Shown here: piece by piece, positions 41,145 through 64,000 of the stretch | How positions within the stretch are numbered: the stretch's first letter is position 1 | Layout: each line of letters starts with the position of its first letter | Origin: Raja brachyura | Taxonomy: Eukaryota | Direction: 5' to 3' | Length of the DNA stretch: 64,000 nt | Assembly: GCA_963514005.1 (NCBI GenBank) | Contig: OY740804.1 | Span: 5,022,001-5,086,000 of the forward strand | Made by a program: the position numbers and the translations under genes | The notes under the pieces: model-generated | Databases searched by the model: none | Seen by the model: only the letters and a program-made list of their open reading frames with translations | Told to the model about the DNA's origin: nothing

Positions 41145-43880
41145 TTACCCCCTTATCCTTAAGCTGTGACCCCTTGTCCTGGACGGCCCCAACATCGGGA
41201 ACAATCTTCCTGCATCTAGCCTGTCCAACCCCTTAAGAATCTTGTAAGTTTCTATAAGATCCCCTCTCAATCTCCTAAATTCTAGAGAGTATAAACCGAG
41301 TCTATGCAGTCTTTGCTCATAAGACAGTCCTGACATCCCAGGAATCAGTCTGGTGAACCTTCGCTGCACTCCCTCTATGGCAATAATGTCCTTCCTCAGA
41401 TTTGGAGACCAGAACTGTACGCAATACTCCAGGTGTGGCCTCACCAAGACCCTATACAACTGAAGTAGAACCTCCCTGCTCCTATACTCAAATCCTTTTG
41501 CTATGAAAGCTAACATACCATTGGCTTTCTTCACTGCCTGTTGTACCTGCATGCCTACTTTCAATGACTGGTGTACCATGACACCCAGGTCGCGCTGCAT
41601 CTCCCCTTTTCGTAATCGGCCACCATTTAGATAGTAGTCGGTTTTCCTATTTTTGCCACCAAAGTGGATAACCTCACATTTATCCACATTATACTGCATC
41701 TGCCAAACATTTGCCCACTCACCCAGCCTATCCAAGTCACCTTGCATTCTCCTAGCATCCTCCTCACAGCTAACACTGCCCCCCAGCTTAGTGTCATCCG
41801 CAAACTTGGAGATATTGCCTTCAATTCCCTCATCCAGATCATTTATGTATATTGTAAATAGCTGGGGTCCCAGCACTGAGCCTTGCGGTACCCCACTAGT
41901 CACTGCCTGCCATTGTGAAAACGACCCGTTAACTCCTACTCTTTGCTTCCTGTTTGCCAGCCAGTTCTCTATCCACATCAATACTGAACCCCCAATGCCA
42001 TATGCTTTAAGTTTATATACTAATCGCTTATGTGGGACCTTGTCGAAAGCCTTCTGGAAGTCCAGATACACCACATCCACTGGTTCTCCCCCATCCACGC
42101 TACTAGTTACATCCTCGAAAAATTCCACAAGATTCGTCAGACATGATTTACCTTTCGTAAATCCATGCTGACTTTGTCCAATCATTTCACCACTTTCCAA
42201 ATGTGCTGCTATCCCATCTTTAATAACTGACTCTAGCAGTTTCCCCACTACCGATGTTAGACTAACTGGTCTGTAATTCCCCGTTTTCTCTCTCCCCCCC
42301 TTCTTAAAAAGAGGGGTTACGTTTGCTACCCGCCAATCCTCAGGAACTACTCCAGAATCTAAAGAGTTTTGAAAGATTATCACTAATGCATCCACTATTT
42401 CCGGAGCTACTTCCTTAAGTACTCTGGGATGCAGCCTATCTGGCCCTGGGGATTTATCGGCCTTTAATCCATTCAATTTACCCAACACCACTTCCCGACT
42501 AACCTGGATTTCACTCAAGTACTCCTTTGACCTGCGGTCCCCTGTTATTTCCGGCAGATTATTTATGTCTTCCTTAGTGAAGACGGAACCAAAGTAGTTA
42601 TTCAATTGGTCCGCCATATCCTTGTTCCCCATGATCAACTCACCTGTTTCTGACTGCAAGGGACCTACATTTGTTTTAACTAATCTCTTTCTCTTCACAT
42701 ATCTATAAAAACTTTTGCAGTCAGTTTTTATGTTCCCTGCCAGTTTTCTTTCATAATCTATTTTTCCTTTCCTAATCAAGCCCTTTGTCCTTCTCTGCTG
42801 GTCTCTGAATTTTTCCCAGTCCTCTGGTATGCTGCTTTTTCTGGCTACTTTGTACGCATCATCCTTTGCTTTGATACTATCCCTGATTTCCCTTGTTATC
42901 CACGGATTCACTACCTTCCCTGATCTATTCTTTTGCCAAATTGGGATGAACAATTTTTGTAGTTCATCCATGCAGTCTTTAAATGTCTTCCATTGCATAT
43001 CCACCGTCAACCCTTTTAGAATTGATTGCCAGTCAATCTTGGCCAATTCACGTCTCATACCCTCAAAGTTACCTTTCCTTAAGTTCAGAACCATTGTTTC
43101 TGAATTAACAATGTCACTCTCCATCCTAATGAAGAACTCAACCATATTATGGTCACTCTTGCCCAAAGGGGCACGTACAATAAGACTGCTAACTAACCCT
43201 TCCTCATTGCTCAATACCCAGTCTAAAATAGCCTGCTCTCTCGTTGGTTCCTCTACATGTTGATTTAGATAACTATCCCTCATACTTTCCAAAAAATCCT
43301 CTTCCTCAGCGCCCCTGCCAATTTGATTCACCCAATCTATATGTAGATTGAAGTCACCCATTATAACTGTTTTGCCTTTGTCGCACGCATTTCTAATTTC
43401 CTGTTTTATACCATCCCCAACTTCACTACTACTGTTAGGTGGCCTGTACACAACTCCCACTAGCGTTTTCTGCCCCTTAGTGTTTCGCAGCTCTACCCAT
43501 ACTGATTCCACATGCTCCAAGCTAATGTCCTTCCTTTCCATTGCGTTAATCTCCTCTCTAACCAGCAACGCTACCCCACCTCCTTTTCCTTTCTCTCTAT
43601 CCCTCCTGAATATTGAATACCCCTGGATGTTCAGCTCCCAGCCTTGGTCACCCTGGAGCCATGTCTCCGTGATCCCAACTATATCATACTCATTAATAGC
43701 TATCTGCACGTTCAACTCATCCACCTTATTACGAATACTCCTTGCATTGAGACACAAGGCCTTCAGGCTTGTTTTTACAACGCTCTTACCCCTTTTACTT
43801 TTCACCTTGCTCCCTATTGCTTCCACCCTCGTTTTACACCCACCTGCCTCTCTGCTCATGCTCCCACCCCCCTGCCACAC
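41145..43880 (-). CDS. CR1 ORF2 (AP endonuclease + reverse transcriptase) with a premature stop near the C-terminus
   Basis: LNARS, ITETW, MGDFN, SDH; FADD. In-frame TAA (RIRG*PFRTE) where the copy at 23.8 kb reads RIRGNSFRTE. Confidence 0.9.
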   Translation of the reverse strand: MWQGGGSMSREAGGCKTRVEAIGSKVKSKRGKSVVKTSLKALCLNARSIRNKVDELNVQIAINEYDIVGITETWLQGDQGWELNIQGYSIFRRDREKGKGGGVALLVREEINAMERKDISLEHVESVWVELRNTKGQKTLVGVVYRPPNSSSEVGDGIKQEIRNACDKGKTVIMGDFNLHIDWVNQIGRGAEEEDFLESMRDSYLNQHVEEPTREQAILDWVLSNEEGLVSSLIVRAPLGKSDHNMVEFFIRMESDIVNSETMVLNLRKGNFEGMRRELAKIDWQSILKGLTVDMQWKTFKDCMDELQKLFIPIWQKNRSGKVVNPWITREIRDSIKAKDDAYKVARKSSIPEDWEKFRDQQRRTKGLIRKGKIDYERKLAGNIKTDCKSFYRYVKRKRLVKTNVGPLQSETGELIMGNKDMADQLNNYFGSVFTKEDINNLPEITGDRRSKEYLSEIQVSREVVLGKLNGLKADKSPGPDRLHPRVLKEVAPEIVDALVIIFQNSLDSGVVPEDWRVANVTPLFKKGGREKTGNYRPVSLTSVVGKLLESVIKDGIAAHLESGEMIGQSQHGFTKGKSCLTNLVEFFEDVTSSVDGGEPVDVVYLDFQKAFDKVPHKRLVYKLKAYGIGGSVLMWIENWLANRKQRVGVNGSFSQWQAVTSGVPQGSVLGPQLFTIYINDLDEGIEGNISKFADDTKLGGSVSCEEDARRMQGDLDRLGEWANVWQMQYNVDKCEVIHFGGKNRKTDYYLNGGRLRKGEMQRDLGVMVHQSLKVGMQVQQAVKKANGMLAFIAKGFEYRSREVLLQLYRVLVRPHLEYCVQFWSPNLRKDIIAIEGVQRRFTRLIPGMSGLSYEQRLHRLGLYSLEFRRLRGDLIETYKILKGLDRLDAGRLFPMLGPSRTRGHSLRIRG

Positions 43881-44542
43881 TAGTTTAAATCCTCCCTGAC
43901 AGCACTAGCAAACACTCCCCCAAGGACATTGGTTCCATTCCAGCCCAGGTGCAGACCGTCCTGTTTGTACTGGTCCCACCTCCCCCAGAAATGGTCCCAG
44001 TGCCCTAAAAATTTGAATCCCTCCCCCTTGCACCATTTTTCAAGCCACGTATTCATCTGCAATATCCTCCTATTTCTATTCTGACTGGCCCGTGGTACTG
44101 GTAATAATCCAGAGATTATTACCTTTGAGGTCCTACTTTTGAGTTTATCTCCTAGCTCCCTAAATTCACCTTGTAGGACCTCATCCCTTTTTTTCCCTAT
44201 ATCGTTGGTGCCAATATGCACCACGACAACTGGCTGTTCACCCTCCCCCTCCAGAATGTTCTGCAGCCGTTCAGTAACATCCCTGACCTTTGCACCAGGG
44301 AGGCAACATACCATCCTGGAGTCTCTTTTGCAGCCGCAGAAATGCCTATCTATTCCCCTGACAATTGAATCCCCTATTACAATAGCCCTTCCCCTCTTTT
44401 TTCCCCCATCATGTGCTGCAGAGCCACCCATGGTGCCATGAACTTGGCTGCTGCTGCATTCCCCTGATGAGCCATCTCCCTCAACAGTATCCAAAATGGT
44501 AAACCTGTTGAGTAGGGAGATGACCGCAGGGGACTCCTGCAC
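43880..44542 (-). CDS. CR1 ORF1, 5'-truncated, SGNH/GDSL esterase domain
   Basis: IGDSIV, LPGA, HIGTND and DGLHL blocks. Confidence 0.88.
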   Translation of the reverse strand: MQESPAVISLLNRFTILDTVEGDGSSGECSSSQVHGTMGGSAAHDGGKKRGRAIVIGDSIVRGIDRHFCGCKRDSRMVCCLPGAKVRDVTERLQNILEGEGEQPVVVVHIGTNDIGKKRDEVLQGEFRELGDKLKSRTSKVIISGLLPVPRASQNRNRRILQMNTWLEKWCKGEGFKFLGHWDHFWGRWDQYKQDGLHLGWNGTNVLGGVFASAVREDLN

Positions 44543-46332
44543 AACTTATTCAACCTATCTCTGTAACTTAGCTGTTGAAACCCAGGCAACATTCTAGTAA
44601 ATCTCCTCTGTACCCTCTCTATTTTGTTAACATCCTTCCTATAATTGGGCGACCAAAATTGTACACCATACTCCAGATTTGGTCTCACCAACGCCTTGTA
44701 CAATTTTAACATTACATCCCAGCTTCTATACTCAATGCTCTGATTTATAAAGGCTAGCATACCAAAAGCTTTCTTTACCACCCTATCTATATGAGATTCT
44801 ACCTTCAAGGAACTATGCACGGTTATCCCCAGATCCCTCTGTTCAACTGTATTCTTCAATTCCCTACCGTTTACCATGTACGTCCTATTTTGATTTGTCC
44901 TGCCAAGGTGTAGCACCTCACATTTATCTGCATTAAACTCCATCTGCCATCTTTCAGCCCATTTTTCCAACTGGCCTAAATCACTCTGTAGACTTTGGAA
45001 ATCCTCTTCATTATCCACAACACCCCCTATCTTGGTATCATCTGCATACTTACTAATCCAATGTACCACCCCTTCATCCAGATCATTGATGTACATGACA
45101 AACAACAAAGGACCCAACACAGATCCCTGAGGCACCCCACTAGTCACCTGCCTCCAACCCTACAAACAGCCATCCACCATTACCCTCTGGCTTCTCCCAT
45201 TCAGCCACTGTTGAATCCATCTTGCTATTCCTGCATTTATACCCAACAGTTGAACCTTCTTAACCAACCTTCCATGAGGAACCTTGTCAAAGGCCTTACT
45301 GAAATCCATATAGACAACATCCACTGCTTTACCCTCGTCAATTTCCCTAGTAACCTCTTTAAAAAATTCAAGAAGATTAGTCAAACATGACCTTCCAGGC
45401 ATAAATCCATGTTGACTGTTCCTAATTAGACCCTCTTTATCCAGATACTTATATATATTATCTCTAAGTAGCTTTTCCATTAATTTGCCCACCACTAAAG
45501 TCAAACTAACCGGTCTATAATTGCTAGGTTTACTTTTAGAACCCTTTTTAAACAATGGAACAACATGCGCAGTACGCCAATCCTTGGGGACTATTCCAGT
45601 TTCCACCGGGAGATCAGGTTGGTTATTGCGAACCGAGCAGAGGTGTTGGGTGAAGCGATCGCCGAGCCTGCGCTTGGTCTCGCCGACGTAGAGCAGCTGA
45701 CACAGAGAGCAGCGGATGCAGTGGATGAGGTTGGAGGAGGTGCAGGTGAACCTCTGCCGCATCTGGAAAGACTGCTTAGGTCCTTGGATGGAGTCAAGGG
45801 GGGAGATAAAGCGACAAGTGTAGAATTTCCTGCGGTTGCAAGGGAAAGTACCAAAGGAGGGGGTGGTTTGGTTGGGAAGGGACGAATTGACCAGGGAGTT
45901 ATGGATGGAACGGTCTCTGTGGAAAACCGAAAGGGGAGGAGATGGGAAGATGTGGCCGGTGGTGGGATCCCATTGGAGGTGGTGAAAATGTCGGAGGATT
46001 ATCTGGTGTATGTGACGGCTGGTCGGGTGGAAGGTGAGGACAAGGGGGACTCTGCCCTTGTTATGAGTGAGGGGATGGGGAGTGAGGGCAGAGTTACATA
46101 TAGAAGAGACCCTGGCGAGAGCCTCATCTATAGTAGAATAGGGGAACCCCCGTTCCCAAAAGAATGATGACATCTCCGAAGGTTGGAGGAGCCCACCTCC
46201 ATTTGGGCAGTTTACACCTCAGCAATATGAACATTGACTTCTCCAATATCAGGTAGTCCCCGCTATCTCCCTCTTTCCCCTTCCCAACTCTCCCACAGCC
46301 CACTGTCTCCGCCGCTTGCTTTCTTCTACCCA

Positions 46333-48598: not shown

Positions 48599-49289
48599 TA
48601 ATCTATCTATCTATCTATGTATATATCTATGTCGGAGGATTATCTATATATATATATACATGTTTTGTTTAAAATATATCTATCCATATACTTTAAAAAC
48701 TCTGTGTGTGTGTGTACGGCATTTTGCCTTTCAAACGTATCTCCTCGAAAACCAGACGCAAAAACGCGGAGATTTTTACAATTTCGGTAGGGAGTTCAGA
48801 AATCCACTCCTTGGTCAATTATTTCCTCAGATTTAAAAAAATAAAATCGCCGCTTGAGCTGTTGACGTCGTAATGCTCACATGCCCACCAATCAGGGCCC
48901 ACCTGCCTCCGCCCCCCGGTGCCCGCGCCCAGCCCAAGTATGCGGCACGCATCCCGCAGCTGGACTCCCCCGCCCGCTCCAACCCCCCCCCCCCCCGTAC
49001 AGATGCGCAGAAAGAACGAGCGTTCTGCAGCTCGTGAGGTCACAACAGGTCACCGGCGGCCACCGGCTTGCTTCTGAATCCTTTCTGTATCCCCCGCCCG
49101 ATGGTAGAAGATGGCGTCCATGGCGGCCGTTATCGTCGCGCGGGGCACGCGATGAGAAGGCGGCCCTGCCGGCCATTACTCCGTCTGGGAAACTCAGCGC
49201 AGCGAGTCAAGTTGCGCCCCTCCCTCCCGCTGCAAACCCAACGCGCTGCCAGTCGCGCCGCTCGCAAGTCCTTTGATAAAAACCTTGCG

Positions 49290-49895
49290 ACCCCCCCCCT
49301 CTCCCACCTCTCTCTCTCCCTCCCTCTCTCTCTCCTCCACCCCTCTCTCTCTCTCCCCCTACACCTCCCTCTCTCTCTCTCTCTCCCCCACCCCTCTCTC
49401 TCCCCCTCTCTCTCTCCCCCCCTCTCTCTCTCTCTCCCACCTCGCTCTCCCACCTCGCTCTCNNNNNNNNNNNNNNNNNNNNNNNNNNNNNNNNNNNNNN
49501 NNNNNNNNNNNNNNNNNNNNNNNNNNNNNNNNNNNNNNNNNNNNNNNNNNNNNNNNNNNNNNNNNNNNNNNNNNNNNNNNNNNNNNNNNNNNNNNNNNNN
49601 NNNNNNNNNNNNNNNNNNNNNNNNNNNNNNNNNNNNNNNNNNNNNNNNNNNNNNNNNNNNNNNNNNNNNNNNNNNNNNNNNNNNNNNNNNNNNNNNNNNN
49701 NNNNNNNNNNNNNNNNNNNNNNNATCTCTCTCTCTCTCCCCCACCTCTCTATCTCTCTCTCTCTCTCCCCCACCTCTCTATCTCTCTCTCTCTTCCCCCC
49801 AGCTCTCCCCCCACCTCTCTCTCCCACCTCTCTCTCCCCTCCTCCCTGTTTCCCCCCCCTTCTCTCTCTGCCATCACTCTCTACCCACCCCCCTC
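49290..49895. repeat. CT-rich low-complexity tract containing an assembly gap (N 49463-49723)
   Basis: Seen directly. Confidence 0.95.
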
Positions 49896-51147
49896 TCTAG
49901 ACATGCCTGCAAGTTGGGGGCTATGCGTCAGTGGATAGGGCAGTTATGGGGTAAAAGGAGCAAATTAATAATATTAATATATTAACAAAGGGGGTAGTTA
50001 GCGTGTGTGCGGGGGGGGGGAGTTAGTGTGTGTGTGGGGGTGGTTAATGTGCGTGACGCCGCATACCGCCCCCCCCCCCACAACCGCAAGTAGGGGGAAC
50101 AGACCCAACGGGCCTGCACTTGGTCTAATTACGCTTAAAATTCTCAAATTGACAACAATTTAGCCGTTTATTTTTTTAGTTCTCTAATCCTTGTGGCTAG
50201 AGTGTTGGTCAACAGCGTTCTCGCAATAAGTAACCATTTACTTTTCATTTTGTTTTGCCTTCTGTTGTGTTTTTGTCTAATTCAGCTAGGCCCAACCTTA
50301 ATCCTGAAGCTGTTGTGATACTGATTGTGAGTGAGAGGGGATCACTATCCAGAAACCCATATATTTTCCTGGACGTATTTTTCACACGGTCATTAAAGCG
50401 ACACATTTAGTTGTAGCTGAAGTGAGGTAATTTGCCGAATATTGTACTCTGCGGTCTCTTTCCATTCACAACTGCTAGATCTGGGAAGCCACCAGCCGAC
50501 ACAAGGACCGGGAGATGCCGCTCCCAGCAGCGTGACAAGCGACAGAAACGCCGGCAATGCTGAGGGGACAGAAGAGACAATGTCCGTTTGGAAGATAGAC
50601 ACAAAATACTGGAGTAACTCAGCAGCATCTATGGAGCTAAGGAATAGGTGCCGTTTCGAGATCTAGACCCTTCTACAGACTGAGAGTCGGGGAAAATGGA
50701 AGATGTATAGATGGTTGTGTAGAGAGATATAGAACAAATGAATTAAAGATATGTAAAAAAAAGTAACAATGATAAAGGAAACAGGCCATTGCTAGCTGTG
50801 TAGTAAGTGAGAACAAGTTACAGGCAATGAGATTCAACAAGAAGCTGGTTCAACTTGGGTGGGAGAGGGATGGAGAGAGAGGGGATGCAAGGTTTACTTG
50901 AAGTTAGAGATATCAATATTCATACCATTGGGGTGTAATCTGCCGACGGGAAATATGAGATGTTGTTCCCTACCACTGGGTTGGAGATGGCAGAGACGCT
51001 TCCAATTGGAACGAGGGCAAGTCCATGCAGTGATGGATGATCTGGTCCAGTGTTGGTGGGGGGATGAATGTTGTCCAGCGCACCCCTGATCATTCCGAAT
51101 GTTCACCCGATTCTTCCTGTTCATTTTCTCAAGATGTTTCCCCTCAG

Positions 51148-52398: not shown

Positions 52399-52527
52399 NN
52401 NNNNNNNNNNNNNNNNNNNNNNNNNNNNNNNNNNNNNNNNNNNNNNNNNNNNNNNNNNNNNNNNNNNNNNNNNNNNNNNNNNNNNNNNNNNNNNNNNNNN
52501 NNNNNNNNNNNNNNNNNNNNNNNNNNN
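52399..52527. other. Assembly gap (N run) over the 5' junction of Tx1 copy 1
   Basis: Seen directly. Confidence 1.
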
Positions 52528-53035
52528 CTCTGCAGTTGAGAAGGATTGGAGCAGCCTTTCCAGGATTTTGCCGTTGGAGAGGGCACAGACCCAGGGGGGC
52601 TTCATAGTTCAACTTATTGTTGGGCTGTTGAAGCTTTTCTCTGGTCTGGGGAGCCTCCATCTGTGTGAAGATTCCTGAGTTTCTCCACATTGTCGAGGGT
52701 GCGGTTGGCGTTGGCGGATTGCCAAGAGTGCCTGTGATCTCCGTGGGCTGAAGTTGTGCGGTGTCTTTGTCGTTTTTGGCTCCGCTTCTCTGCCCTAAAG
52801 TCATTTTGCTCAGTGCGGCTGCCTGGCTTAATGTGAAGAAGGTACTTTTGCGTCCAGCGCGACTGGGATCGAGTTTCCCGTAAGCTGCTCTTGGCTGTGG
52901 ATGAACCTGGGGACTTTCCTGCTTCAGCTGGAGGTTTCTGTTTTCTGCTGCCTGTCTTTGACTGTGACTGTCTCTGGGACTTAACTTGGAGCTGTGCTGC
53001 TGAGGTGCTTGGAGCTGGTTTGTGCCTCTGTGAGG

Positions 53036-55390
53036 ATGGCGATGGAAGGGGCGCGGCCGAAGGTCCGGACCTACGCAGCGACGGCATCAGTGGCGGGTGC
53101 GAGGCCATCTGAGCTTGAGCCTCATGTTGACTTGGATGGGGACAGTTTTGGTATTTCTGTTCAAACTGGGCCTATGATGTCTAGGGGGGTAATTACGAAG
53201 GCCATGAATGAACTTCTTGGGAGGGGGGCTATTGTCTCTTCTGAGCTCGAAAGGGGAAAGGTGGAGATGATACTTAAGACCCGGGAGTGTGTGGCCCGAG
53301 CGTTGGAGGAGGGGATCTCAGTGGGGGGGGTCCACGTACAGGTGGATCCGTGGGTATCCAGGGTGAGACCGGTTCTCCTGCGGAGCTGCCCCACTTATTT
53401 TTCGGATGCAGTGCTTATTCCACACCTGTCCAAGTTTGGGGAGGTGCGGTCTAAATGTTTTCGTCTCTTGCATCCCGGGGGGGACCCGGAGGAAAAAGGG
53501 GTCTTCAGTTTCAAGAGGAGGGTGTTCATGAAGGTGGGTGAGGGGGATGGTGCCGAGGGGAGTTTTGAGGTGGTGCATAAGGGTGTACCCAGAACCGTGC
53601 GTTGGAGTTGGGGAAAGGCACGGTGTCATGCGTGCGGCGAATTTGGACATCTCCGTAGGGAGTGTCTTTTTCGCGGGGGCACTGCTAGAGGTTCTAGTGT
53701 AGTGGCCCAGGAAAGCGCTGCTGGCCCATCTGGGGTGGCTGGTCAAACCTCAGCGGCGCGGGGTGGTACTGCTGACCCGGCTGAGGTTGCCAGTTCTGCC
53801 TTGGTGACCCGGGGCGGCAGTGCTAAGCCTTCTGGGTCCAGAGGTTCCGCTTTGGGGACCCTGGGCAGTGAGAGCCCAAGCCCCCCACGTCCCCTACGTC
53901 TTGCGCCTGTGGCGGTGGATGGAGGTGGGGCGCAGGAGGAGGGGAGTGTTGAGGGGGGGTTTTGGGAGAAGCAGGGGAAGCATAATAAGAAGAAGGAGAG
54001 GGATAGGGCTGCCCGAGCGAAGAAAGTGCAATCGGGTGAGTTTGGCTCCAGTGTGGTGCAGACTGCACCTGCTGGGGCCCAGGGGGGAGTTGTGATGGCT
54101 CGGAAGGGGGGAAAGAAGTCTAAACGTGTGGGTGGCAAAGTGGTTGGGGGTAATGTGGAGGCGGATGACCCTTCCCTTATGGAGGTTACCGCACCTCCGC
54201 ATGCGAGTGGGACTAAAAGGAGGCATTTGCCTGGTGAAGAGGAGGAAGGGCGTGGGTCCAGAGCGAAGGGGATGTCTTTCTCCGAGCTTTCCACCACTGA
54301 GGTGGCTGAAAGTGGTCTTGACCCGGTGTCTTCTGGGTCGGTGGTTGGGCCTTCTCTTCATGGATCTACAGCGGGTGTCACCGGACTGGGTGCTGAAGTT
54401 GATTCCGGTGGAGTTGTGTCCACTGGGCGGGAGTCTGTCCCTTCATCTCAGGGGCCCTCTGAGGGAGTTATCTCGGCGGATGCTGTGGTTAGCTCCCTTG
54501 GGTGTGTACCCTCTGGGTCGGATGAGGTCCCCTCGTTTCAGAGGCCTACTGAGGGTGCTAGCAAGGTAGATGACGTGGTTGGCTCCTCTGGTAGTGTGCC
54601 CTCTGTGACGGGGGGTGGGCAGAGTCAGGCTGAGGGGGGAGTTTCGGGGGTGTTGTCGTTCAAGTCTGTGCTCCATATCAGTGCCAGTGGAGGTGCTGGG
54701 GGGCGGGATGCCTCACCGGATGAGTTGTCTGGGGTGAGGTTAATGGCAGGTGGTGATTCTCTGGGTGATGCCTGTGGAGAGGGCACTCTGGATGATGTGG
54801 AGGTCAGGGCTGTTATGGGACGTGATCCTCTTTCAGACTCCGAGGGTGCCAGTGTTCCACAGGCCCTGGGGATGCCTCTTGTTGTTGCTTCCCCAGGCCC
54901 AGAGGAGGAGGGTGATGGTAGCGTGCAGGAGCCCAGCCATTCAGAGGGCTGCGAGTCTCAGGTAGGGGTGTTGGGACCCACCCCCAGCATTGATCCGGGT
55001 GGTCGTGTCATGGCTGTGGAGGAGGATAGCGATGCGGCCAGTGGGGGGGGCTCAGAGAGTGTTGTGTCAGACAGTTCTGGTCTTTCTGAGGTTGTTGATT
55101 CAGGTGCGAGCGGGTTGGCTGAGAGCCCAGACTCCAAGGCCGTGTCTGAGGCGAAGCTTATTGTTGAGGTGCGAGAGTTCTTAAAAATAAGTCGTGCTCC
55201 CAAAACATTATGGTGGGCCATTACAAGGAGATGGGAGGATTGGCTAGATGTGCGGGAGAGTCTCGAGGCTATCCTTAGTAACAAGGATAGTGGTCTTTCT
55301 GACTCGGATTTGGGGCAGTTTTGGGGTTTGTTGAAGGTCCTCAGAAAAGGACCTCCTGTGACTACAGGGAGTGTGAGGGTCACAATCTAA
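53036..55390 (+). CDS. Tx1-like ORF1 (gag-like, CCHC knuckle, long acidic/Ser-Gly region), 784 aa from the first ATG
   Basis: RTYA start, LSKFGEV, CHACGEFGHLRREC. Confidence 0.88.
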   Translation: MAMEGARPKVRTYAATASVAGARPSELEPHVDLDGDSFGISVQTGPMMSRGVITKAMNELLGRGAIVSSELERGKVEMILKTRECVARALEEGISVGGVHVQVDPWVSRVRPVLLRSCPTYFSDAVLIPHLSKFGEVRSKCFRLLHPGGDPEEKGVFSFKRRVFMKVGEGDGAEGSFEVVHKGVPRTVRWSWGKARCHACGEFGHLRRECLFRGGTARGSSVVAQESAAGPSGVAGQTSAARGGTADPAEVASSALVTRGGSAKPSGSRGSALGTLGSESPSPPRPLRLAPVAVDGGGAQEEGSVEGGFWEKQGKHNKKKERDRAARAKKVQSGEFGSSVVQTAPAGAQGGVVMARKGGKKSKRVGGKVVGGNVEADDPSLMEVTAPPHASGTKRRHLPGEEEEGRGSRAKGMSFSELSTTEVAESGLDPVSSGSVVGPSLHGSTAGVTGLGAEVDSGGVVSTGRESVPSSQGPSEGVISADAVVSSLGCVPSGSDEVPSFQRPTEGASKVDDVVGSSGSVPSVTGGGQSQAEGGVSGVLSFKSVLHISASGGAGGRDASPDELSGVRLMAGGDSLGDACGEGTLDDVEVRAVMGRDPLSDSEGASVPQALGMPLVVASPGPEEEGDGSVQEPSHSEGCESQVGVLGPTPSIDPGGRVMAVEEDSDAASGGGSESVVSDSSGLSEVVDSGASGLAESPDSKAVSEAKLIVEVREFLKISRAPKTLWWAITRRWEDWLDVRESLEAILSNKDSGLSDSDLGQFWGLLKVLRKGPPVTTGSVRVTI

Positions 55391-58300
55391 TGTGTCTACA
55401 CATTCACAGTAGCTACATTAAATTTAAATGGGAGTAGAGCGAGTTTTCGAAGATTTCAGCTCTTATCAGCCCTAAGGGAGGGGAGATTTGCAGTTTGTTA
55501 TCTGCAAGAGACACATACCGTTGCTAGTGATGAACCTACCTGGCAACTGGAGTGGGAAGGGAGGGTTTATATGAGCCATCTCAGCTCAAATTCGAGTGGG
55601 GTGGCTTTTTTGTTGGCCCCAAATTTTCTGCCAAGCATTTTAAAAGTGCAGGAAGTGGTGCCAGGACGTTTGCTCCATCTGGCCGTGAGCCTGGATGGCA
55701 TGCCGTTGCATTTCATTAACGTGTATGCCCCTAGCTCCGGCACGATGCAGGCCGGCCTGCTTCGGGAGGTGAATGCTCTGTTGGGCACTATTGATAGGGG
55801 AGAGTGTGTCTTCCTTGGTGGGGACTTTAATTGCACACTTGAGGTGCGGGACCGTTCTGGTACTCAGTGTGCGCCTGCTGTAGCGAAGAAGCTGAGAGGC
55901 TTGATTGACTCCTTTGAGTTGGTTGATGTTTGGAGGGACCTTCACCCTGATTCCACTGCTTTTTCGCGGAGGTCTGAGGGCGGTGGTTCCCGCATTGATC
56001 GGTTTTATATTTCCCGAGCGTTTGTTTCCCGTGTCTCAGCGGCCTCAATGCGGCTGGTGCCGTGCTCGGACCATTGTCTGGTGCGTGTGGATTTCAATCC
56101 AGCGTGCGCTCGGGCTGGGTCCGCGTACTGGCACTTTAACAACAGGCTGCTGGAGGATCGGTGTTTCCGGGAGTCATTCACTCGGTTTTGGGTGAAGTGG
56201 AGAGAGAGGCAGAGGTGCTTCTCTTCCCTTAGGCAGTGGTGGGATGTGGGTAAAGCTCACATCCGTCTCTTTTGTAAGGAATATACATGGGGGTCGACTG
56301 GGAGGCGGGACTCAGCGGTCGCGAAGCTGGAGAGGGAGATACAGGACGCTGAGTCTCGCCTGGGTCAGTTTGGTGAAGACTCCAGCGAATGGGGAGAGTT
56401 TCAGAGGAAGAAGGAGGTTTTGAGGAGTCTGCTGCTTGAGCGATCTCGAGGCGCTTATGTGAGGTCTCGGGTCCAGATGCTGCACGAGCTGGACCGAGCG
56501 TCGCCTTTCTTTTTCTCTTTGGAGAAGGGGCGGGGAGCTCGAAAACAGCTCGTGGAGTTGCTTGCAGATGACGGCTCCTCTGTCACTGATCCAGAGAGGA
56601 TTAATGCCTTGGTTAGGTCCTTTTATGGGACCCTGTTCTCTGCGGAAGGATTCAGTGTGGAGGCTCAGCAAGATCTGTGGGAGGGTCTACCGGCCGTAGA
56701 TAGGGGGGAGGCTGATCTTCTTGATGGCCCCTTATCTTTGGAGGAGTTGACTTGCGCCTTGCATCAGCTCAGGAGGGGTAAGTCCCCCGGGCTGGATGGG
56801 TTGACGGTGGAGTTTGTTAGAGCATTCTGGGACGTCCTAGGGGGTGACTATATGTTGGTTTTGGGGGAGAGCCTGGCGACTGGAGTGATGCCTCTCTCGT
56901 GGCGTAGGACGGTTGTTGTCTTGCTGCCTAAGAAGGGCGAACTCCGTTTGTTGAAGAACTGGCGTCCAGTCTCTCTCCTTTGCACAGAATATAAAATTTT
57001 TGCACGGGCAATGGCAAATCGCCTGGGCTCCGTGCTGCATCAAGTGATTCATCCTGATCAATCTTATACAGTCCCTGGCCGGTCCATCCAGGATAACATC
57101 CACCTGGTTAGGGACCTGATTCATTTAGTCCAGGGTACTGGTGAGTCAGCTGCTTTTCTGTCTCTTGATCAGGAGAAGGCTTTTGATAGGGTAGAGCATG
57201 AATACCTATTTGGGACGTTGCAAGCGTTTGGGTTTGGACCACACTTCGTGGCCCGGGTCCGGCTTTTGTACGCTGCGGCGGAGTGTCTTGTAAAGGTTAA
57301 TGGCGCGGTGCTATCTCCTTTTCATTTTGGGAGGGGGGTCCGCCAGGGGTGCCCTATGTCGGGCCAGTTGTATTCGGTCTGTGTGGAGCCGTTCCTGTGT
57401 CTTCTTCGGAGGAGGTTGACAGGCCTGGCCCTACCTGGCCCGCGGGTTGAGGTGATTCTATCGGCGTATGCCGATGACGTACTTCTTATGTTCACTGATC
57501 CTGGTGACCTGCGGAGGATGCGTGACTGCCAGGAGATATTCTCGGCTGCATCTTCTGCTAGGATTAACTGGAGTAAGTGCTCTGGACTTTTGGTGGGTCA
57601 GTGGCGGGTAGACTCCCTGCCGGAGGAGATGGCATTGTATGCGTGGAGTACCACGCACCTCCTCTATCTGGGGGTGTACCTGAGTCCCACTGAGGATGTT
57701 TGGCCGGCAAACTGGCAAGAGTTGGAGACGAAGGTGGTTGCTCGGCTGGGGCGCTGGTCAGGCCTGCTTGGAGTTCTCTCCTTTCGGGGGAGGGTGCTGG
57801 TCATAAACCAGCTGGTGGCCTCTATGTTATGGTACCGGCTGGCTACTCTTGTCCCGCCCTCTATATTTGTAACTGCTATACAGAAGAAGCTGGTGGATTT
57901 CTTTTGGGGAAATAGGAAGCATTGGATTTCCGCGGCGGTCCTGAGTCTTCCGTTAGAGGAGGGCGGCCAGTCCTTGGTGTGCGTGCGCACCCAGGTGGCG
58001 GCTCTCCGTCTCAGGACTCTGCGGAGATACATGTATGTAGAGAACCCTCCCAGATGGCACGCTCTGGCCACGTATTTTTTTCGTCAGGGTCGTTGCCTAA
58101 GGGGGGTCTCGCGGCTCCCGGTGGCGGGTGTCAGTCGACCCGCTCTAAGGGGCTTGCCTGTTTTCTATAGGGATGTGTTAAGAGTGAGGAATTTGGTGGT
58201 GTTCAGCCAGAGTGTTGTTCCACGAGGAGAGGGGGATGTTGTGGCTGCGGGTGTGGCTGGTCCTCATCCTGTCATGGTGGTTGTCGAGGAGAGGCGCGAG

Positions 58301-59098
58301 CCTAGAGTGGTTCAGATAGAGCTTACCCCTGCTCCGTCAGATCTGCTCATCGGGCCTAGGCTTCGGGATATTTCTCGGCCTCCGGCTCCGCATAATCTGA
58401 GCTGCCTTTCTGAGATGACCAGCATGCCATTTTGTGATGCAAGGAGACGCGCACTGTACAGGATGCTCCTGCACATTCTGAACCACCGTGCCTTCGTCTC
58501 CCGTCCTGACTCACCATGGAGGACGGTGTTACCATCCGAAGGCGGCGGGGGGCCCCAGTGGGGGTCCTTCTATAAGGGAGTTGTACCCCTTTATATTGGG
58601 GACCTGGGGTGGAGAGTGCTGCATGGAGCGGTGGTTTGTAATAAACTTTTGAGTCGGTTCACGGGCTCGTCTGCCGCATGTATTTTCTGCGGAGAGGAGG
58701 AGACCGTATTCCATGTGTATATGGAGTGTGTGAGGTTACTGCCCCTGTACCAATATCTGAAGGGGCTGTTCCTCAAGTTCTGGCTGCATTTTAGCCCCAC
58801 AATCCTGGTGTTTGGACACAAGGCGGGGAGTGGGGAGAGCCGAGTGTGGGGGGGGGACTTACCTGTCGGTTTGCTCCTTGGCCTGGCCAAGATGGCCATT
58901 CGTGGGTCCAGGCAGCGGGCGGTCGACGGTCTGGCGAGAGTCGGCTGCCTGCCCCTCTTTCGGGCCTACGTCCGTGCACGTGTGTCCCTGGAGAGGGAAC
59001 ACGCGGTGTTCACGGGGACTCTGGAGGCCTTCCGTCAGCGCTGGTCGCCGCGTGGGGTTGAGGCGATTATAAATGAATGTACTGCTGTACTACAATGA
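55391..59098 (+). CDS. Tx1-like ORF2 (APE + RT + C-terminal CCHC); open frame begins directly after the ORF1 stop, first ATG only at 55571
   Basis: TLNLNG, LQETH, NVYAP, GGDFN, SDH, KSPGLDG, NWRPVSLL, RQGCPMS, YADD, CIFCGEEETVFHVYMEC. Confidence 0.93.
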   Translation, partial: CVYTFTVATLNLNGSRASFRRFQLLSALREGRFAVCYLQETHTVASDEPTWQLEWEGRVYMSHLSSNSSGVAFLLAPNFLPSILKVQEVVPGRLLHLAVSLDGMPLHFINVYAPSSGTMQAGLLREVNALLGTIDRGECVFLGGDFNCTLEVRDRSGTQCAPAVAKKLRGLIDSFELVDVWRDLHPDSTAFSRRSEGGGSRIDRFYISRAFVSRVSAASMRLVPCSDHCLVRVDFNPACARAGSAYWHFNNRLLEDRCFRESFTRFWVKWRERQRCFSSLRQWWDVGKAHIRLFCKEYTWGSTGRRDSAVAKLEREIQDAESRLGQFGEDSSEWGEFQRKKEVLRSLLLERSRGAYVRSRVQMLHELDRASPFFFSLEKGRGARKQLVELLADDGSSVTDPERINALVRSFYGTLFSAEGFSVEAQQDLWEGLPAVDRGEADLLDGPLSLEELTCALHQLRRGKSPGLDGLTVEFVRAFWDVLGGDYMLVLGESLATGVMPLSWRRTVVVLLPKKGELRLLKNWRPVSLLCTEYKIFARAMANRLGSVLHQVIHPDQSYTVPGRSIQDNIHLVRDLIHLVQGTGESAAFLSLDQEKAFDRVEHEYLFGTLQAFGFGPHFVARVRLLYAAAECLVKVNGAVLSPFHFGRGVRQGCPMSGQLYSVCVEPFLCLLRRRLTGLALPGPRVEVILSAYADDVLLMFTDPGDLRRMRDCQEIFSAASSARINWSKCSGLLVGQWRVDSLPEEMALYAWSTTHLLYLGVYLSPTEDVWPANWQELETKVVARLGRWSGLLGVLSFRGRVLVINQLVASMLWYRLATLVPPSIFVTAIQKKLVDFFWGNRKHWISAAVLSLPLEEGGQSLVCVRTQVAALRLRTLRRYMYVENPPRWHALATYFFRQGRCLRGVSRLPVAGVSRPALRGLPVFYRDVLRVRNLVVFSQSVVPRGEGDVVAAGVAGPHPVMVVVEERREPRVVQIELTPAPSDLLIGPRLRDISRPPAPHNLSCLSEMTSMPFCDARRRALYRMLLHILNHRAFVSRPDSPWRTVLPSEGGGGPQWGSFYKGVVPLYIGDLGWRVLHGAVVCNKLLSRFTGSSAACIFCGEEETVFHVYMECVRLLPLYQYLKGLFLKFWLHFSPTILVFGHKAGSGESRVWGGDLPVGLLLGLAKMAIRGSRQRAVDGLARVGCLPLFRAYVRARVSLEREHAVFTGTLEAFRQRWSPRGVEAIINECTAVLQ

Positions 59099-59196
59099 TC
59101 TGTTCATTATAGTGTGATTTTTGATTGTGTTTTGATGTGTTGTATTTTATGATTTGTGTTGAATAAAGTTTTTGAAATGAAAAAAAAAAAAAAAAA

Positions 59197-59205
<9 letters not shown>

Positions 59206-59240
<35 letters not shown>
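59206..59240. repeat. (GA)n spacer between the tandem Tx1 copies
   Basis: About 17 GA units directly after the polyA. Confidence 0.95.
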
Positions 59241-59246
<6 letters not shown>

Positions 59247-59772
59247 GTCGTGTTTGCTTCTCAGCTCTGCAGTTGAGAAGGATTGGAGCAGCCTTTCCAG
59301 GATTGTGCCGTTGGAGAGGGCACAGACCCAGGGGGGCTTCATAGTTCAACTTATTGTTGGGCTGTTGAAGCTTTTCTCTGGTCTGGGGAGCCTCCATCTG
59401 TGTGAAGATTCCTGAGTTTCTCCACATTGTCGAGGGTGCGGTTGGCGTTGGCGGATTGCCAAGAGTGCCTGTGATCTCAGTGGGCTGAAGTTGTGCGGTG
59501 TCTTTGTCGTTTTTGGCACCGCTTCTCTGCCCTAAAGTCATTTTGCTCAGTGCGGCTGCCTGGCTTAATGTGAAGAAGGTACTTTTGCGTCCAGCGCGAC
59601 TGGGATCGAGTTTCCCGTAAGCTGCTCTTGGCTGTGGACGAACCTGGGGACTTTCCTGCTTCAGCTGGAGGTTTCTGTTTTCTGCTGCCTGTCTTTGACT
59701 GTGACTGTCTCTGGGACTTAACTTGGAGCTGTGCTGCTGAGGGGCTTGGAGCTGGTTTGTGCCTCTGTGAGG

Positions 59773-62127
59773 ATGGCGATGGAAGGGGCGCGGCCGATGG
59801 TCCGGACCTACGCAGCGACGGCATCAGTGGCGGGTGCGAGGCCATCTGAGCTTGAGCCTCATGTTGACTTGGATGGGGACAGTTTTGGTATTTCTGTTCA
59901 AACTGGGCCTATGATGTCGAGGGGGGTAATTACGAAGGCCATGAATGAACTTCTTGGGAGGGGGGCTATTGTCTCTTCTGAGCTCGAAAGGGGAAAGGTG
60001 GAGATGATACTTAAGACCCGGGAGTGTGTGGCCCGAGCGTTGGAGGAGGGGATCTCAGTGGGGGGGGTCCACGTACAGGTGGATCCGTGGGTATCCAGGG
60101 TGAGACCGGTTCTCCTGCGGAGCTGCCCCACTTATTTTTCGGATGCAGTGCTTATTCCACACCTGTCCAAGTTCGGGGAGGTGCGGTCTAAATGTTTTCG
60201 TCTCTTGCATCCCGGGGGGGACCCGGAGGAAAAAGGGGTCTTCAGTTTCAAGAGGAGGGTGTTCATGAAGGTGGGTGAGGGGGATGGCGCCGAGGGGAGT
60301 TTTGAGGTGGTGCATAAGGGTGTACCCAGAACCGTGCGTTGGAGTTGGGGCAAGGCACGGTGTCATGCGTGCGGCGAATTTGGACATCTCCGTAGGGAGT
60401 GTCTTTTTCGCGGGGGCACTGCTAGAGGTTCTAGTGCAGTGGCCCAGGAAAGCGCTGCTGGCCCATCTGGGGTGGCTTGTCAAACCTCAGCGGCGCGGGG
60501 TGGTACTGCTGACCCGGCTGAGGTTGCCAGTTCTGCCTTGGTGACCCGGGGCGGCAGTGCTAAGCCTTCTGGGTCCAGAGGTTCCGCTTTGGGGACCCTG
60601 GGCAGTGAGAGCCCAAGCCCCCCACGTCCCCTACGTCTTGCGCCTGTGGCGGTGGATGGAGGTGGGGCGCAGGAGGAGGGGAGTGTTGAGGGGGGGTTTT
60701 GGGAGAAGCAGGGGAAGCATAATAAGAAGAAGGAGAGGGATAGGGCTGCCCGAGCGAAGAAAGTGCAATCGGGTGAGTTTGGCTCCAGTGTGGTGCAGAC
60801 TGCACCTGCTGGGGCCCAGGGGGGAGTTGTGGTGGCTCGGAAGGGGGGAAAGAAGTCTAAACGTGTGGGTGGCAAAGTGGTTGGGGGTAATGTGGAGGCG
60901 GATGACCCTTCCCTTATGGAGGTTACCGCACCTCCGCATGCGAGTGGGACTAAAAGGAGGCATTTGCCTGGTGAAGAGGAGGAAGGGCGTGGGTCCAGAG
61001 CGAAGGGGATGTCTTTCTCCGGGCTTTCCACCACTGAGGTGGCTGAAAGTGGTCTTGACCCGGTGTCTTCTGGGTCGGTGGTTGGGCCTTCTCTTCATGG
61101 ATCTACAGCGGGTGTCACCGGACTGGGTGCTGAAGTTGATTCCGGTGGAGTTGTGTCCACTGGGCGGGAGTCTGTCCCTTCATCTCAGGGGCCCTCTGAG
61201 GGAGTTATCTCGGCGGATGCTGTGGTTAGCTCCCTTGGGTGTGTACCCTCTGGGTCGGATGAGGTCCCCTCGTTTCAGAGGCCTACTGAGGGTGCTAGCA
61301 CGGTAGGTGACGTGGTTGGCTCCTCTGGTAGTGTGCCCTCTGTGACGGGGGATGTGCAGAGTCAGGCTGAGGGGGGAGTTTCGGGGGTGTTGTCGTTCAA
61401 GTCTGTGCTCCATATCAGTGCCAGTGGAGGTGCTGGGGGGCGGGATGCCTCACCGGATGAGTTGTCTGGGGTGAGGTTAATGGCAGGTGGTGATTCTCTG
61501 GGTGATGCCTGTGGAGAGGGCACTCTGGATGATGTGGAGGTCAGGGCTGTTATGGGACGTGATCCTCTTTCAGACTCCGAGGGTGCCAGTGTTCCACAGG
61601 CCCTGGGGATGCCTCTTGTTGTTGCTTCCCCAGGCCCGGAGGAGGAGGGTGATGGTAGCGGGCAGGAGCCCAGCCATTCAGAGGGCTGCGAGTCTCAGGT
61701 AGGGGTGTTGGGACCCACCCCCAGCATTGATCCGGGTGGTCGTGTCATGGCTGTGGAGGAGGATAGCGATGCGGCCAGTGGGGGGGGCTCAGAGAGTGTT
61801 GTGTCAGACAGTTCTGGTCTTTCTGAGGTTGTTGATTCAGGTGCGAGCGGGTTGGCTGAGAGCCCAGACTCCAAGGCCGTGTCTGAGGCGAAGCTTATTG
61901 TTGAGGTGCGAGAGTTCTTAAAAATAAGTCGTGCTCCCAAAACATTATGGTGGGCCGTTACAAGGAGATGGGAGGATTGGCTAGATGTGCGGGAGAGTCT
62001 CGAGGCTATCCTTAGTAACAAGGATAGTGGTCTTTCTGACTCGGATTTGGGGCAGTTTTGGGGTTTGTTGAAGGTCCTCAGAAAAGGACCTCCTGTGACT
62101 ACAGGGAGTGTGAGGGTCACAATCTAA
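59773..62127 (+). CDS. Tx1-like ORF1, copy 2
   Basis: Same length as copy 1, about 11 amino acid differences. Confidence 0.88.
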   Translation: MAMEGARPMVRTYAATASVAGARPSELEPHVDLDGDSFGISVQTGPMMSRGVITKAMNELLGRGAIVSSELERGKVEMILKTRECVARALEEGISVGGVHVQVDPWVSRVRPVLLRSCPTYFSDAVLIPHLSKFGEVRSKCFRLLHPGGDPEEKGVFSFKRRVFMKVGEGDGAEGSFEVVHKGVPRTVRWSWGKARCHACGEFGHLRRECLFRGGTARGSSAVAQESAAGPSGVACQTSAARGGTADPAEVASSALVTRGGSAKPSGSRGSALGTLGSESPSPPRPLRLAPVAVDGGGAQEEGSVEGGFWEKQGKHNKKKERDRAARAKKVQSGEFGSSVVQTAPAGAQGGVVVARKGGKKSKRVGGKVVGGNVEADDPSLMEVTAPPHASGTKRRHLPGEEEEGRGSRAKGMSFSGLSTTEVAESGLDPVSSGSVVGPSLHGSTAGVTGLGAEVDSGGVVSTGRESVPSSQGPSEGVISADAVVSSLGCVPSGSDEVPSFQRPTEGASTVGDVVGSSGSVPSVTGDVQSQAEGGVSGVLSFKSVLHISASGGAGGRDASPDELSGVRLMAGGDSLGDACGEGTLDDVEVRAVMGRDPLSDSEGASVPQALGMPLVVASPGPEEEGDGSGQEPSHSEGCESQVGVLGPTPSIDPGGRVMAVEEDSDAASGGGSESVVSDSSGLSEVVDSGASGLAESPDSKAVSEAKLIVEVREFLKISRAPKTLWWAVTRRWEDWLDVRESLEAILSNKDSGLSDSDLGQFWGLLKVLRKGPPVTTGSVRVTI

Positions 62128-64000
62128 TGTGTCTACACATTCACAGTAGCTACATTAAATTTAAATGGGAGTAGAGCGAGTTTTCGAAGATTTCAGCTCT
62201 TATCAGCCCTAAGGGAGGGGAGATTTGCAGTTTGTTATCTGCAAGAGACACATACCGTTGCTAGTGATGAACCTACCTGGCAACTGGAGTGGGAAGGGAG
62301 GGTTTATATGAGCCATCTCAGCTCAAATTCGAGTGGGGTGGCTTTTCTGTTGGCCCCAAATTTTCTGCCAAGCATTTTAAAAGTGCAGGAAGTGGTGCCA
62401 GGACGTTTGCTCCATCTGGCCGTGAGCCTGGATGGCATGCCGTTGCATTTCATTAACGTGTATGCCCCTAGCTCCGGCACGATGCAGGCCGGCCTGCTTC
62501 GGGAGGTGAATGCTCTGTTGGGCACTATTGATAGGGGAGAGTGTGTCTTCCTTGGTGGGGACTTTAATTGCACACTTGAGGTGCGGGACCGTTCTGGTAC
62601 TCAGTGTGCGCCTGCTGTAGCGAAGAAGCTGAGAGGCTTGATTGACTCCTTTGAGTTGGTTGATGTTTGGAGGGACCTTCACCCTGATTCCACTGCTTTT
62701 TCGCGGAGGTCTGAGGGCGGTGGTTCCCGCATTGATCGGTTTTATATTTCCCGAGCGTTTGTTTCCCGTGTCTCAGCGGCCTCAATGCGGCTGGTGCCGT
62801 GCTCGGACCATTGTCTGGTGCGTGTGGATTTCAATCCAGCGTGCGCTCGGGCTGGGTCCGCGTACTGGCACTTTAACAACAGGCTGCTGGAGGATCGGTG
62901 TTTCCGGGAGTCATTCACTCGGTTTTGGGTGAAGTGGAGAGAGAGGCAGAGGTGCTTCTCTTCCCTTAGGCAGTGGTGGGATGTGGGTAAGGCTCACATC
63001 CGTCTCTTTTGTAAGGAATATACATGGGGGTCGACTGGGAGGCGGGACTCAGCGGTCGAGAAGCTGGAGAGGGAGATACAGGACGCTGAGTCTCGCCTGG
63101 GTCAGTTTGGTGAAGACTCCAGCGAATGGGGAGAGTTTCAGAGGAAGAAGGAGGTTTTGAGGAGTCTGCTGCTTGAGCGATCTCGAGGCGCTTATGTGAG
63201 GTCTCGGGTCCAGATGCTGCACGAGCTGGACCGAGCGTCGCCTTTCTTTTTCTCTTTGGAGAAGGGGCGGGGAGCTCGAAAACAGCTCGTGGAGTTGCTT
63301 GCAGATGACGGCTCCTCTGTCACTGTTCCAGAGAGGATTAATGCCTTGGTTAGGTCCTTTTATGGGACCCTGTTCTCTGCGGAAGGATTCAGTGTGGAGG
63401 CTCAGCAAGATCTGTGGGAGGGTCTACCGACCGTAGATAGGGGGGAGGCTGATCTTCTTGATGGCCCCTTATCTTTGGAGGAGTTGACTCGCGCCTTGCA
63501 TCAGCTCAGGAGGGGTAAGTCCCCCGGGCTGGATGGGTTGACGGTGGAGTTTGTTAGAGCATTCTGGGACGTCCTAGGGGGTGACTATATGTTGGTTCTG
63601 GGGGAGAGCCTGGCGACTGGAGTGATGCCTCTCTCGTGGCGTAGGACGGTTGTTGTCTTGCTGCCTAAGAAGGGCGAACTCCGTTTGTTGAAGAACTGGC
63701 GTCCAGTCTCTCTCCTTTGCACAGAATATAAAATTTTTGCACGGGCAATGGCAAATCGCCTGGGCTCCGTGCTGCATCAAGTGATTCATCCTGATCAATC
63801 TTATACAGTCCCTGGCCGGTCCATCCAGGATAACATCCACCTGGTTAGGGACCTGATTCATTTAGTCCAGGGTACTGGTGAGTCAGCTGCTTTTCTGTCT
63901 CTTGATCAGGAGAAGGCTTTTGATAGGGTAGAGCATGAATACCTATTTGGGACGTTGCAAGCGTTTGGGTTTGGACCACACTTCGTGGCCCGGGTCCGGC
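62128..64000 (+). CDS. Tx1-like ORF2, copy 2 (partial)
   Basis: Same in-frame arrangement after TAA 62125-62127; no stop seen to the window end. Confidence 0.85.

Follow-up and report, generated by a model that had tools for sequence, protein, structure and literature searches.

Open reading frames (ORFs) without an AUG have precedent among retrotransposons that lack long terminal repeats (non-LTR elements), R2 and some insect and plant long interspersed nuclear elements (LINEs) also lacking an obvious one, and gammaretroviruses make gag-pol by stop-codon readthrough. How the second ORF (ORF2) of LINEs is translated is a long-standing open question (PMC3894237, PMC11485995). Mammalian L1 is reported to employ AUG-independent termination-reinitiation (Alisch et al. 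2006, as cited in PMC1965478, PMC11485995, PMC5972666 and PMC4072516), with any sense codon reportedly accepted in place of the ORF2 AUG (PMC1965478, PMC11485995), and SART1 is cited for translational coupling at a UAAUG string (Kojima et al. 2005, as cited in PMC3894237, PMC5972666 and PMC10275272). Within the Tx1 clade, Kibi elements are described as targeting TC microsatellites (PMC3812793, PMC4494074). Here, we report on a Tx1-type non-LTR retrotransposon in a stretch of 64,000 nucleotides (nt) of Raja brachyura DNA (GenBank assembly GCA_963514005.1, contig OY740804.1, positions 5,022,001 to 5,086,000 of the forward strand; hereafter the window, whose own coordinates are used throughout). 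Comparison of its copies indicates that the start codon of ORF2 has been lost across the whole family of a highly active LINE, and that this loss is real and selected.

ORF1 and ORF2 of this element share one frame, with only the TAA at 55388-55390 between them. The features on which the argument depends are the following:

52528..59205, + strand: copy 1 of the Tx1-type non-LTR retrotransposon, its 5' end lying under an N stretch that ends at 52527
53036..55390, + strand: ORF1, 784 amino acids (aa) from the first ATG, with a single CCHC knuckle at 53624-53665
55374..55376, + strand: TGA in another frame, serving as the ORF1 stop in older copies with an upstream 1-nt deletion
55388..55390, + strand: TAA at which ORF1 stops, in frame with ORF2; older subfamilies have TAG here
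55390..55437, + strand: ATG of TAATG, out of frame, with the 15 codons that it opens as far as TAG 55435-55437; the ATG is absent from the TAG subfamilies
55391..59098, + strand: ORF2 open frame, 1,235 codons, APE endonuclease and reverse transcriptase; first in-frame ATG at 55571
55391..55570, + strand: AUG-less first 60 codons of ORF2, under purifying selection; no in-frame near-cognate start before 55475
55415..55432, + strand: endonuclease motif I, TLNLNG, whose Asn at 55421 aligns with L1 N14
55502..55516, + strand: LQETH motif; its Glu, 55508-55510, corresponds in the alignment to that of L1 QETH (E43)
55562..55620, + strand: predicted hairpin around the first in-frame ATG, folding in the young, older and sister families; role unproven

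An earlier note on this DNA had described ORF2 as lying in frame behind a single TAA with its first ATG 60 codons on, and the stop-to-stop frames (52985-55390, of 801 codons with the first ATG at 53036, and 55391-59098) bear this out. The note was also correct in assigning the motif-I Asn and the metal-binding Glu to these 60 codons: the sense codons at 55391-55570 align with the human L1 endonuclease from residue 8 on, and ORF2 would therefore have to begin by about codon 5. The AUG of TAATG lies, as had been stated, in another frame, and opens at 55390 a 15-codon peptide that ends at the TAG of 55435-55437. Judging from this layout, ORF2 must be made by a non-canonical route. Decoding of the stop would yield an ORF1-ORF2 fusion of 2,020 aa.

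A junction pattern, counted in the survey genome (2.7 Gb) against a reversed-pattern control, gave 1,861 matches versus none for the control. Spacing is constant across the 100 junction matches listed (by hand count, 85 have TAA and 15 have TAG), the 40 scored DNA hits, taken from 871 candidates, are all 100% identical over 55250-55650, and approximately 108 of 150 protein hits (hand count) fall within open frames exactly 1,235 codons long. A shorter spacer was seen in seven of the 1,861 junction matches, with an ATG in the ORF2 frame in none of them, and a search for an ATG 0-9 nt upstream of the first conserved strand, covering spacers up to 2 nt longer than normal, returned two copies, both out of frame. 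The 40 identical hits and the 1,861 pattern matches rule out an assembly error or an indel confined to two copies, and the loss of the ORF2 AUG is a family-wide trait rather than an error. Hence, the possibility raised in the earlier note, namely a consensus with an in-frame AUG from which the two window copies departed by a shared indel or sequencing error, is not what the family copies show; its observation that the junction is identical in the second window copy also stands, there being 24 differing positions over 52985-57262 and none within 55221-55609. Contigs from other organisms span the junction without a gap (four records in three runs, differing at no more than 26 positions) and show no joints over 55100-55800, which speaks neither for nor against expression. 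In a fourth such organism a contig of low depth carries TAA-TGT in the same register.

Three further results of the survey were set aside. Five copies lack any stop between ORF1 and ORF2; they stem from a single old, decayed insertion, duplicated at least five times, with 11-nt and 1-nt deletions and shared later stops, and do not point to a fused lineage. A degenerate motif-I pattern, used as a finder of other families, gave 209 matches against 228 in its control, which is chance level. Finally, a shark protein in the database, beginning at the internal Met, is as close to the sister family described below (65.8%) as to the AUG-less family (65.1%); it may derive from a broken copy and does not serve here as an argument for initiation without an AUG.

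Selection on the AUG-less codons was assessed by comparing 37 older or intermediate copies with the window sequence and counting the changes common to at least three copies. The 60 codons carry nine synonymous and ten non-synonymous shared changes (ratio of non-synonymous to synonymous change, pN/pS, 0.32; p=0.015), and codons 5-60 alone carry 9:8 (p=0.006). The 60-codon stretch is not distinguishable (p=0.32) from the next 459 codons of ORF2 (56:37, pN/pS 0.21) and differs (p=0.013) from the last 60 codons of ORF1 (11:53, pN/pS 1.38). The motif-I Asn and the QETH Glu are untouched by any shared change. Singletons within the 60 codons lean synonymous too (18:28), so that some of them are probably inherited. 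Across the whole of ORF2 in 65 older copies, with CpG transitions excluded and copies of fewer than 2,200 aligned bases dropped, trunk changes stand at 83:37, as against ~29% synonymous among singletons. These counts indicate that the first 60 codons are under purifying selection as protein and that ORF2 is used without an AUG. The C-terminal half of ORF1 (54100-55387) evolves near neutrally or faster, with a pN/pS of 0.95 overall and 3.1 in the last 29 codons, compared with 0.21 for ORF2.

Where the young copies have TAA, older subfamilies carry TAG and so lack the ATG: this was the case in five of five copies ~91% identical over the junction, and in a second sample of older copies 29 of 30 read TAG-TG without an AUG, the remaining one having TAC. 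Copies at 88-89% identity retain the in-frame TAG (two other old copies are decayed at the site), and copies with TAA make up a young clade that sits within those with TAG. The TAATG overlap is thus recent and no conserved start, TAA being a late derived state, and the TAG-TGT of the older subfamilies makes coupling of the SART1 type unlikely.

A sister family, with 89 matches, has an intact ORF2 that is 75% identical to that of the AUG-less family, its ORF1 being about 32% identical. It too has ATC-TAG-TGT, which is silent there; an in-frame ATG comes four codons later. The sister ORF1 lies in a different frame and stops 23 nt past that ATG in most copies, or in an ATGA overlap in copies with one extra A. 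The distance from the TAG to motif I is 6 nt shorter in the AUG-less family, and teleost-like relatives in metagenome contigs have overlapping ORFs with an in-frame Met. All 21 of the database relatives in which motif I can be recognised also have a Met just before it, although this set is biased in that predicted proteins need a start. It follows from the Met of these three groups that the loss is the derived state, the ORF2 ATG having disappeared from the AUG-less lineage through a net 6-nt deletion.

Two further observations concern these relatives. In the teleost-like elements the T-rich region of overlap often holds a hydrophobic in-frame extension, 20-30 codons long, ahead of the ORF2 Met, and 31 of the 89 sister-family matches are packed into 460 kb of one contig (1.18-1.63 Mb).

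The presence in the same genome of an AUG-bearing sister with an intact ORF2 raises the question as to whether the AUG-less element makes its own endonuclease at all, or whether a relative acts in trans or a protein starting at 55571 suffices; low-level trans-complementation has been proposed for Zorro3. We consider such a supply very improbable. The 3' flanks of the young family are GA-rich (20 of 20), while those of the sister family are a different, fixed sequence (all 17 ends found among 20 fetched), and target choice is reported to be set mainly by the element's own endonuclease (PMC4494074), so that the sister enzyme is an unlikely donor. Purifying selection on ORF2, including its first 60 codons, the 89 sister matches versus 1,861, and the failure of the search for an ATG 0-9 nt before the conserved strand to reveal an AUG-bearing near subfamily speak against it as well. 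A product starting at 55571 would lack the QETH Glu, and an E43S+D145N double mutant is reported in use as an endonuclease-dead L1 (PMC10830420). An undetected AUG-bearing, GA-targeting family is a possible donor. The sister family itself inserts into one fixed repeated sequence, which is possibly a short interspersed nuclear element (SINE).

The reading that fits these data best, with a probability of about one half, is that ORF2 is made by AUG-independent termination-reinitiation. On this reading, an autonomous Tx1-type LINE, very active in recent times and with GA repeats as its target, lost its ORF2 start through the net 6-nt deletion and went on amplifying, AUG-less, through several subfamilies. 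ORF1 would be translated normally from the 5' end, and a small fraction of the ribosomes terminating at its stop would stay on the RNA, or pass it on to a second ribosome. Translation would then resume in the frame of ORF2, no more than five codons downstream, from a codon other than AUG or a near-cognate. The product would be a separate ORF2 protein of ~1,230 aa. The copies show the layout, its fixation throughout the family, the loss of the ATG relative to the sister, selection on the AUG-less codons and a target site of their own; we infer that ORF2 is translated, that this is tied to ORF1 termination, and which codon serves as the start. The junction geometry is loose in this clade (a 23-nt overlap or ATGA in the sister family, two deletions in the AUG-less family), and the youngest and largest subfamily went from UAG to UAA, which is reported as the least readthrough-prone stop in human cells (PMC10954755). 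The nearest UGGGA resembling a termination upstream ribosome-binding site (TURBS) lies only at 156 nt upstream. Among the three routes that the earlier note had put forward, AUG-independent reinitiation is thus the one that fits best, readthrough of the stop is possible but not favoured, and initiation at UAAUG followed by a +1 shift has lost ground.

Two distinct 1-nt deletions near the end of ORF1, carried by 35 and by 6 dispersed copies, bear on readthrough. They make ORF1 end 14 nt earlier, out of the ORF2 frame, so that plain readthrough cannot reach ORF2 in these 41 copies; the same deletions are present in 10 of 30 older copies sampled. If a minority of ribosomes decoded the UAA or UAG, giving the 2,020-aa fusion, the out-of-frame copies would have to be non-autonomous passengers. 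This account, which we hold to be possible though doubtful, draws on the single in-frame stop and identical 8-nt spacer that persist from ~88%-identical copies to the youngest, on the change of that codon from stop to stop (TAG to TAA), and on its having no need of a start codon; shared synonymous changes are also absent from codons 1-19, where ~2.5 would be expected, a difference that is not significant. The single in-frame stop between the two ORFs is found in the main lineage but not in the 41 deletion copies, which were amplified without shared lesions in ORF2; among the 40 fetched, no shared ORF2 frameshift was found outside G runs and 39 kept the TAG, and no stop occurs among the ORF2 changes found in at least three older copies. 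The TAG, moreover, is older than the arrangement, being silent upstream of the sister ATG. Neither a leaky stop context nor a stimulatory 3' structure was seen: the context is a tight UAA-U (young) or UAG-U (older) without a motif resembling CARYYA or CUAG, and no strong structure lies directly 3' of the ORF1 stop (60-nt windows, z no lower than -1.6). In the hairpin at 55562-55620, none of 23 pairs is changed on both sides and there is no excess of synonymous conservation. Should readthrough nevertheless apply, the endonuclease and reverse transcriptase would, tentatively, be made only as the 2,020-aa fusion, a gag-pol-like strategy in a vertebrate LINE, which would have arisen when the ORF2 ATG was lost by deletion and the ORF1 tail moved into the frame of a pre-existing TAG.

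Several points weigh against reinitiation and have to be set beside those in its favour. The ORF2 frame contains no near-cognate start codon before 55475; reinitiation is reported generally to favour AUG (PMC10275272), and Zorro3 is described as requiring its ORF2 ATG. Along the trunk to the dominant young family, the stop is in frame at the oldest and youngest points sampled. The out-of-frame copies may have spread in trans, and their autonomy in cis is only putative. The private changes of an 18-copy deletion clade stand at 1 synonymous to 10 non-synonymous against a small outgroup, a lean that would also suit readthrough. With more in-frame copies added, most of these changes proved to be shared, and the deletion-exclusive changes became 9:3 overall and 1:3 in the 18-copy clade; several of the nine synonymous ones mark no clean clades, sampling is sparse and the copies recombine, so that we rely on neither 1:10 nor 9:3.

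The remaining routes appear considerably less probable than reinitiation. Initiation at the UAAUG AUG, which is GUG in older copies, would be in the -1 frame; such a start, with a +1 shift into ORF2 within about eight codons, might be suggested by the constancy of the 15-codon frame across subfamilies, except at its first codon, and by three of the four shared changes in the 45 nt past the stop being synonymous in the -1 frame. These numbers are tiny, however, and the ORF2 positions that changed are its unconserved first residues. Of 30 older copies, 29 are without the AUG, the peptide is altered at codons 2-4 in a contig from another organism, and no known kind of +1 shift site was recognised before the motif-I Asn; this route is accordingly improbable.

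Splicing, by which an upstream exon joined to an acceptor at 55409 or 55412 would supply the start codon, has in its favour a tandem CAG-TAG acceptor-like site just before motif I and, in the young family, a branch-point-like CTAAT ~20 nt upstream. The branch-like A is a G in older copies, and a pattern catching about three-quarters of foreign exons gave four matches, all with the normal upstream sequence. Since a spliced RNA would keep its 3' end, genomic copies of it should exist; the pattern revealed no such insertion, which disfavours splicing and leaves it with little likelihood. Much the same holds for internal ribosome entry at a non-AUG codon independently of ORF1 translation, a possibility raised for non-LTR elements (PMC3894237) that would tolerate ORF1 frameshifts: the element has no intergenic region, its upstream sequence changes fast without a conserved fold, and we rate such entry as highly unlikely.

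Two observations on the junction sequence are recorded here in their own right. At 55420-55429, inside motif I and in the ORF2 frame, there are two overlapping heptamers of the -1-slippery type; a -1 slip there would exit ORF2 and stop at 55435, and the heptamers may merely reflect Leu-Asn codons. Furthermore, an 11-nt stretch across the TAG (55385-55395) is identical between the sister family and the oldest copy without an AUG, even though directly upstream their ORF1 tails are unlike in both length and sequence; this stretch may be a cis element or a homology boundary.

The window holds a tandem pair of the element, the copies being 99.4% identical to each other, and its other parts are as follows:

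59162..59205, + strand: polyadenylation signal (59162-59167) and A tail (59180-59205)
59206..59245, + strand: (GA)n target microsatellite separating the tandem copies
59246..64000, + strand: copy 2, 99.4% identical and truncated by the window end, with its junction TAA at 62125-62127

The family builds head-to-tail arrays in the genome at a spacing of ~6.7 kb, and some copies are mosaics that join an old 5' part to a young 3' part of ORF2. The ORF2 protein matches L1 endonuclease structures and, in Pfam, Exo_endo_phos (residues 8-228) and RVT_1 (513-762), with a zf-RVT match under the Pfam cut-off; the ORF1 protein has no Pfam match. The element shows the characters of the Tx1 clade, namely an APE endonuclease and non-LTR reverse transcriptase in ORF2, CCHC in ORF1, a 3' A tail and a target-sequence preference. 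A quick tree, which included no curated Tx1 or Kibi reference, places it in a group with shark, sturgeon and turtle proteins, next to a teleost group with one protein labelled TX1, and the nearest named protein is from a shark.

Elsewhere in the window, a second LINE frame of 919 codons (41145-43904, - strand), presumably CR1-like, encodes endonuclease and reverse transcriptase domains, with a Met at codon 16 and an ITETW motif. Additional reverse-transcriptase fragments occur at 44377-46218 (- strand) and 22948-24000 (+ strand), and multiple overlapping long ORFs lie on both strands around an N stretch at 49038-49985, with no Pfam match in the part tested.

The family amounts to a natural experiment within one genome, in which more than 1,800 junction copies without an ORF2 AUG, a TAG/TAA switch and out-of-frame variants occur together with an AUG-bearing sister. 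These natural variants make the mechanism directly testable and would separate reinitiation from readthrough; either outcome would be informative, since it would mean that a wild-type LINE relies on a non-cognate start codon or else that it uses readthrough. For annotation, gene callers will cut such ORF2 proteins short at an internal Met. No description of such a junction, or of readthrough in a LINE, was found in the literature searched, Repbase and most subscription journals lying outside that search.

In comparison with known systems, the junction resembles gammaretroviral gag-pol in having a structural and an enzyme ORF in one frame with one stop between them; it differs in that no strong structure lies just 3' of the stop, in that out-of-frame variants were amplified, and in that this is a non-LTR element. 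With SART1 it shares the UAAUG string at the ORF1 stop and a candidate downstream hairpin. The AUG of this string, however, does not start ORF2 in frame and is missing in older subfamilies, and the hairpin is without covariation support. Its likeness to the Tx1 clade and to Kibi, as these are described, extends to an APE and reverse transcriptase ORF2, a CCHC ORF1, an A tail, a preference for GA/TC repeats and tandem insertion; the flanks are (GA)n on the sense strand and (TC)n on the other, a putatively Kibi-like target. Unlike this element, its Tx1-clade relatives have a Met before motif I (21 of 21 in the biased database set).

It is L1 ORF2 translation that the junction would seem, by analogy, to resemble most. 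Both are bicistronic LINEs with ORF2 behind the ORF1 stop, and the L1 ORF2 AUG is reported to be dispensable. L1 is described as having a natural AUG and a 63-nt spacer, its AUG independence coming from engineered mutants, whereas the present family as a whole naturally lacks the AUG and has no spacer. That ORF2 is functional without an AUG, as in L1, is indicated indirectly by the selection on it, by its own target site and by the lack of an in-frame AUG.

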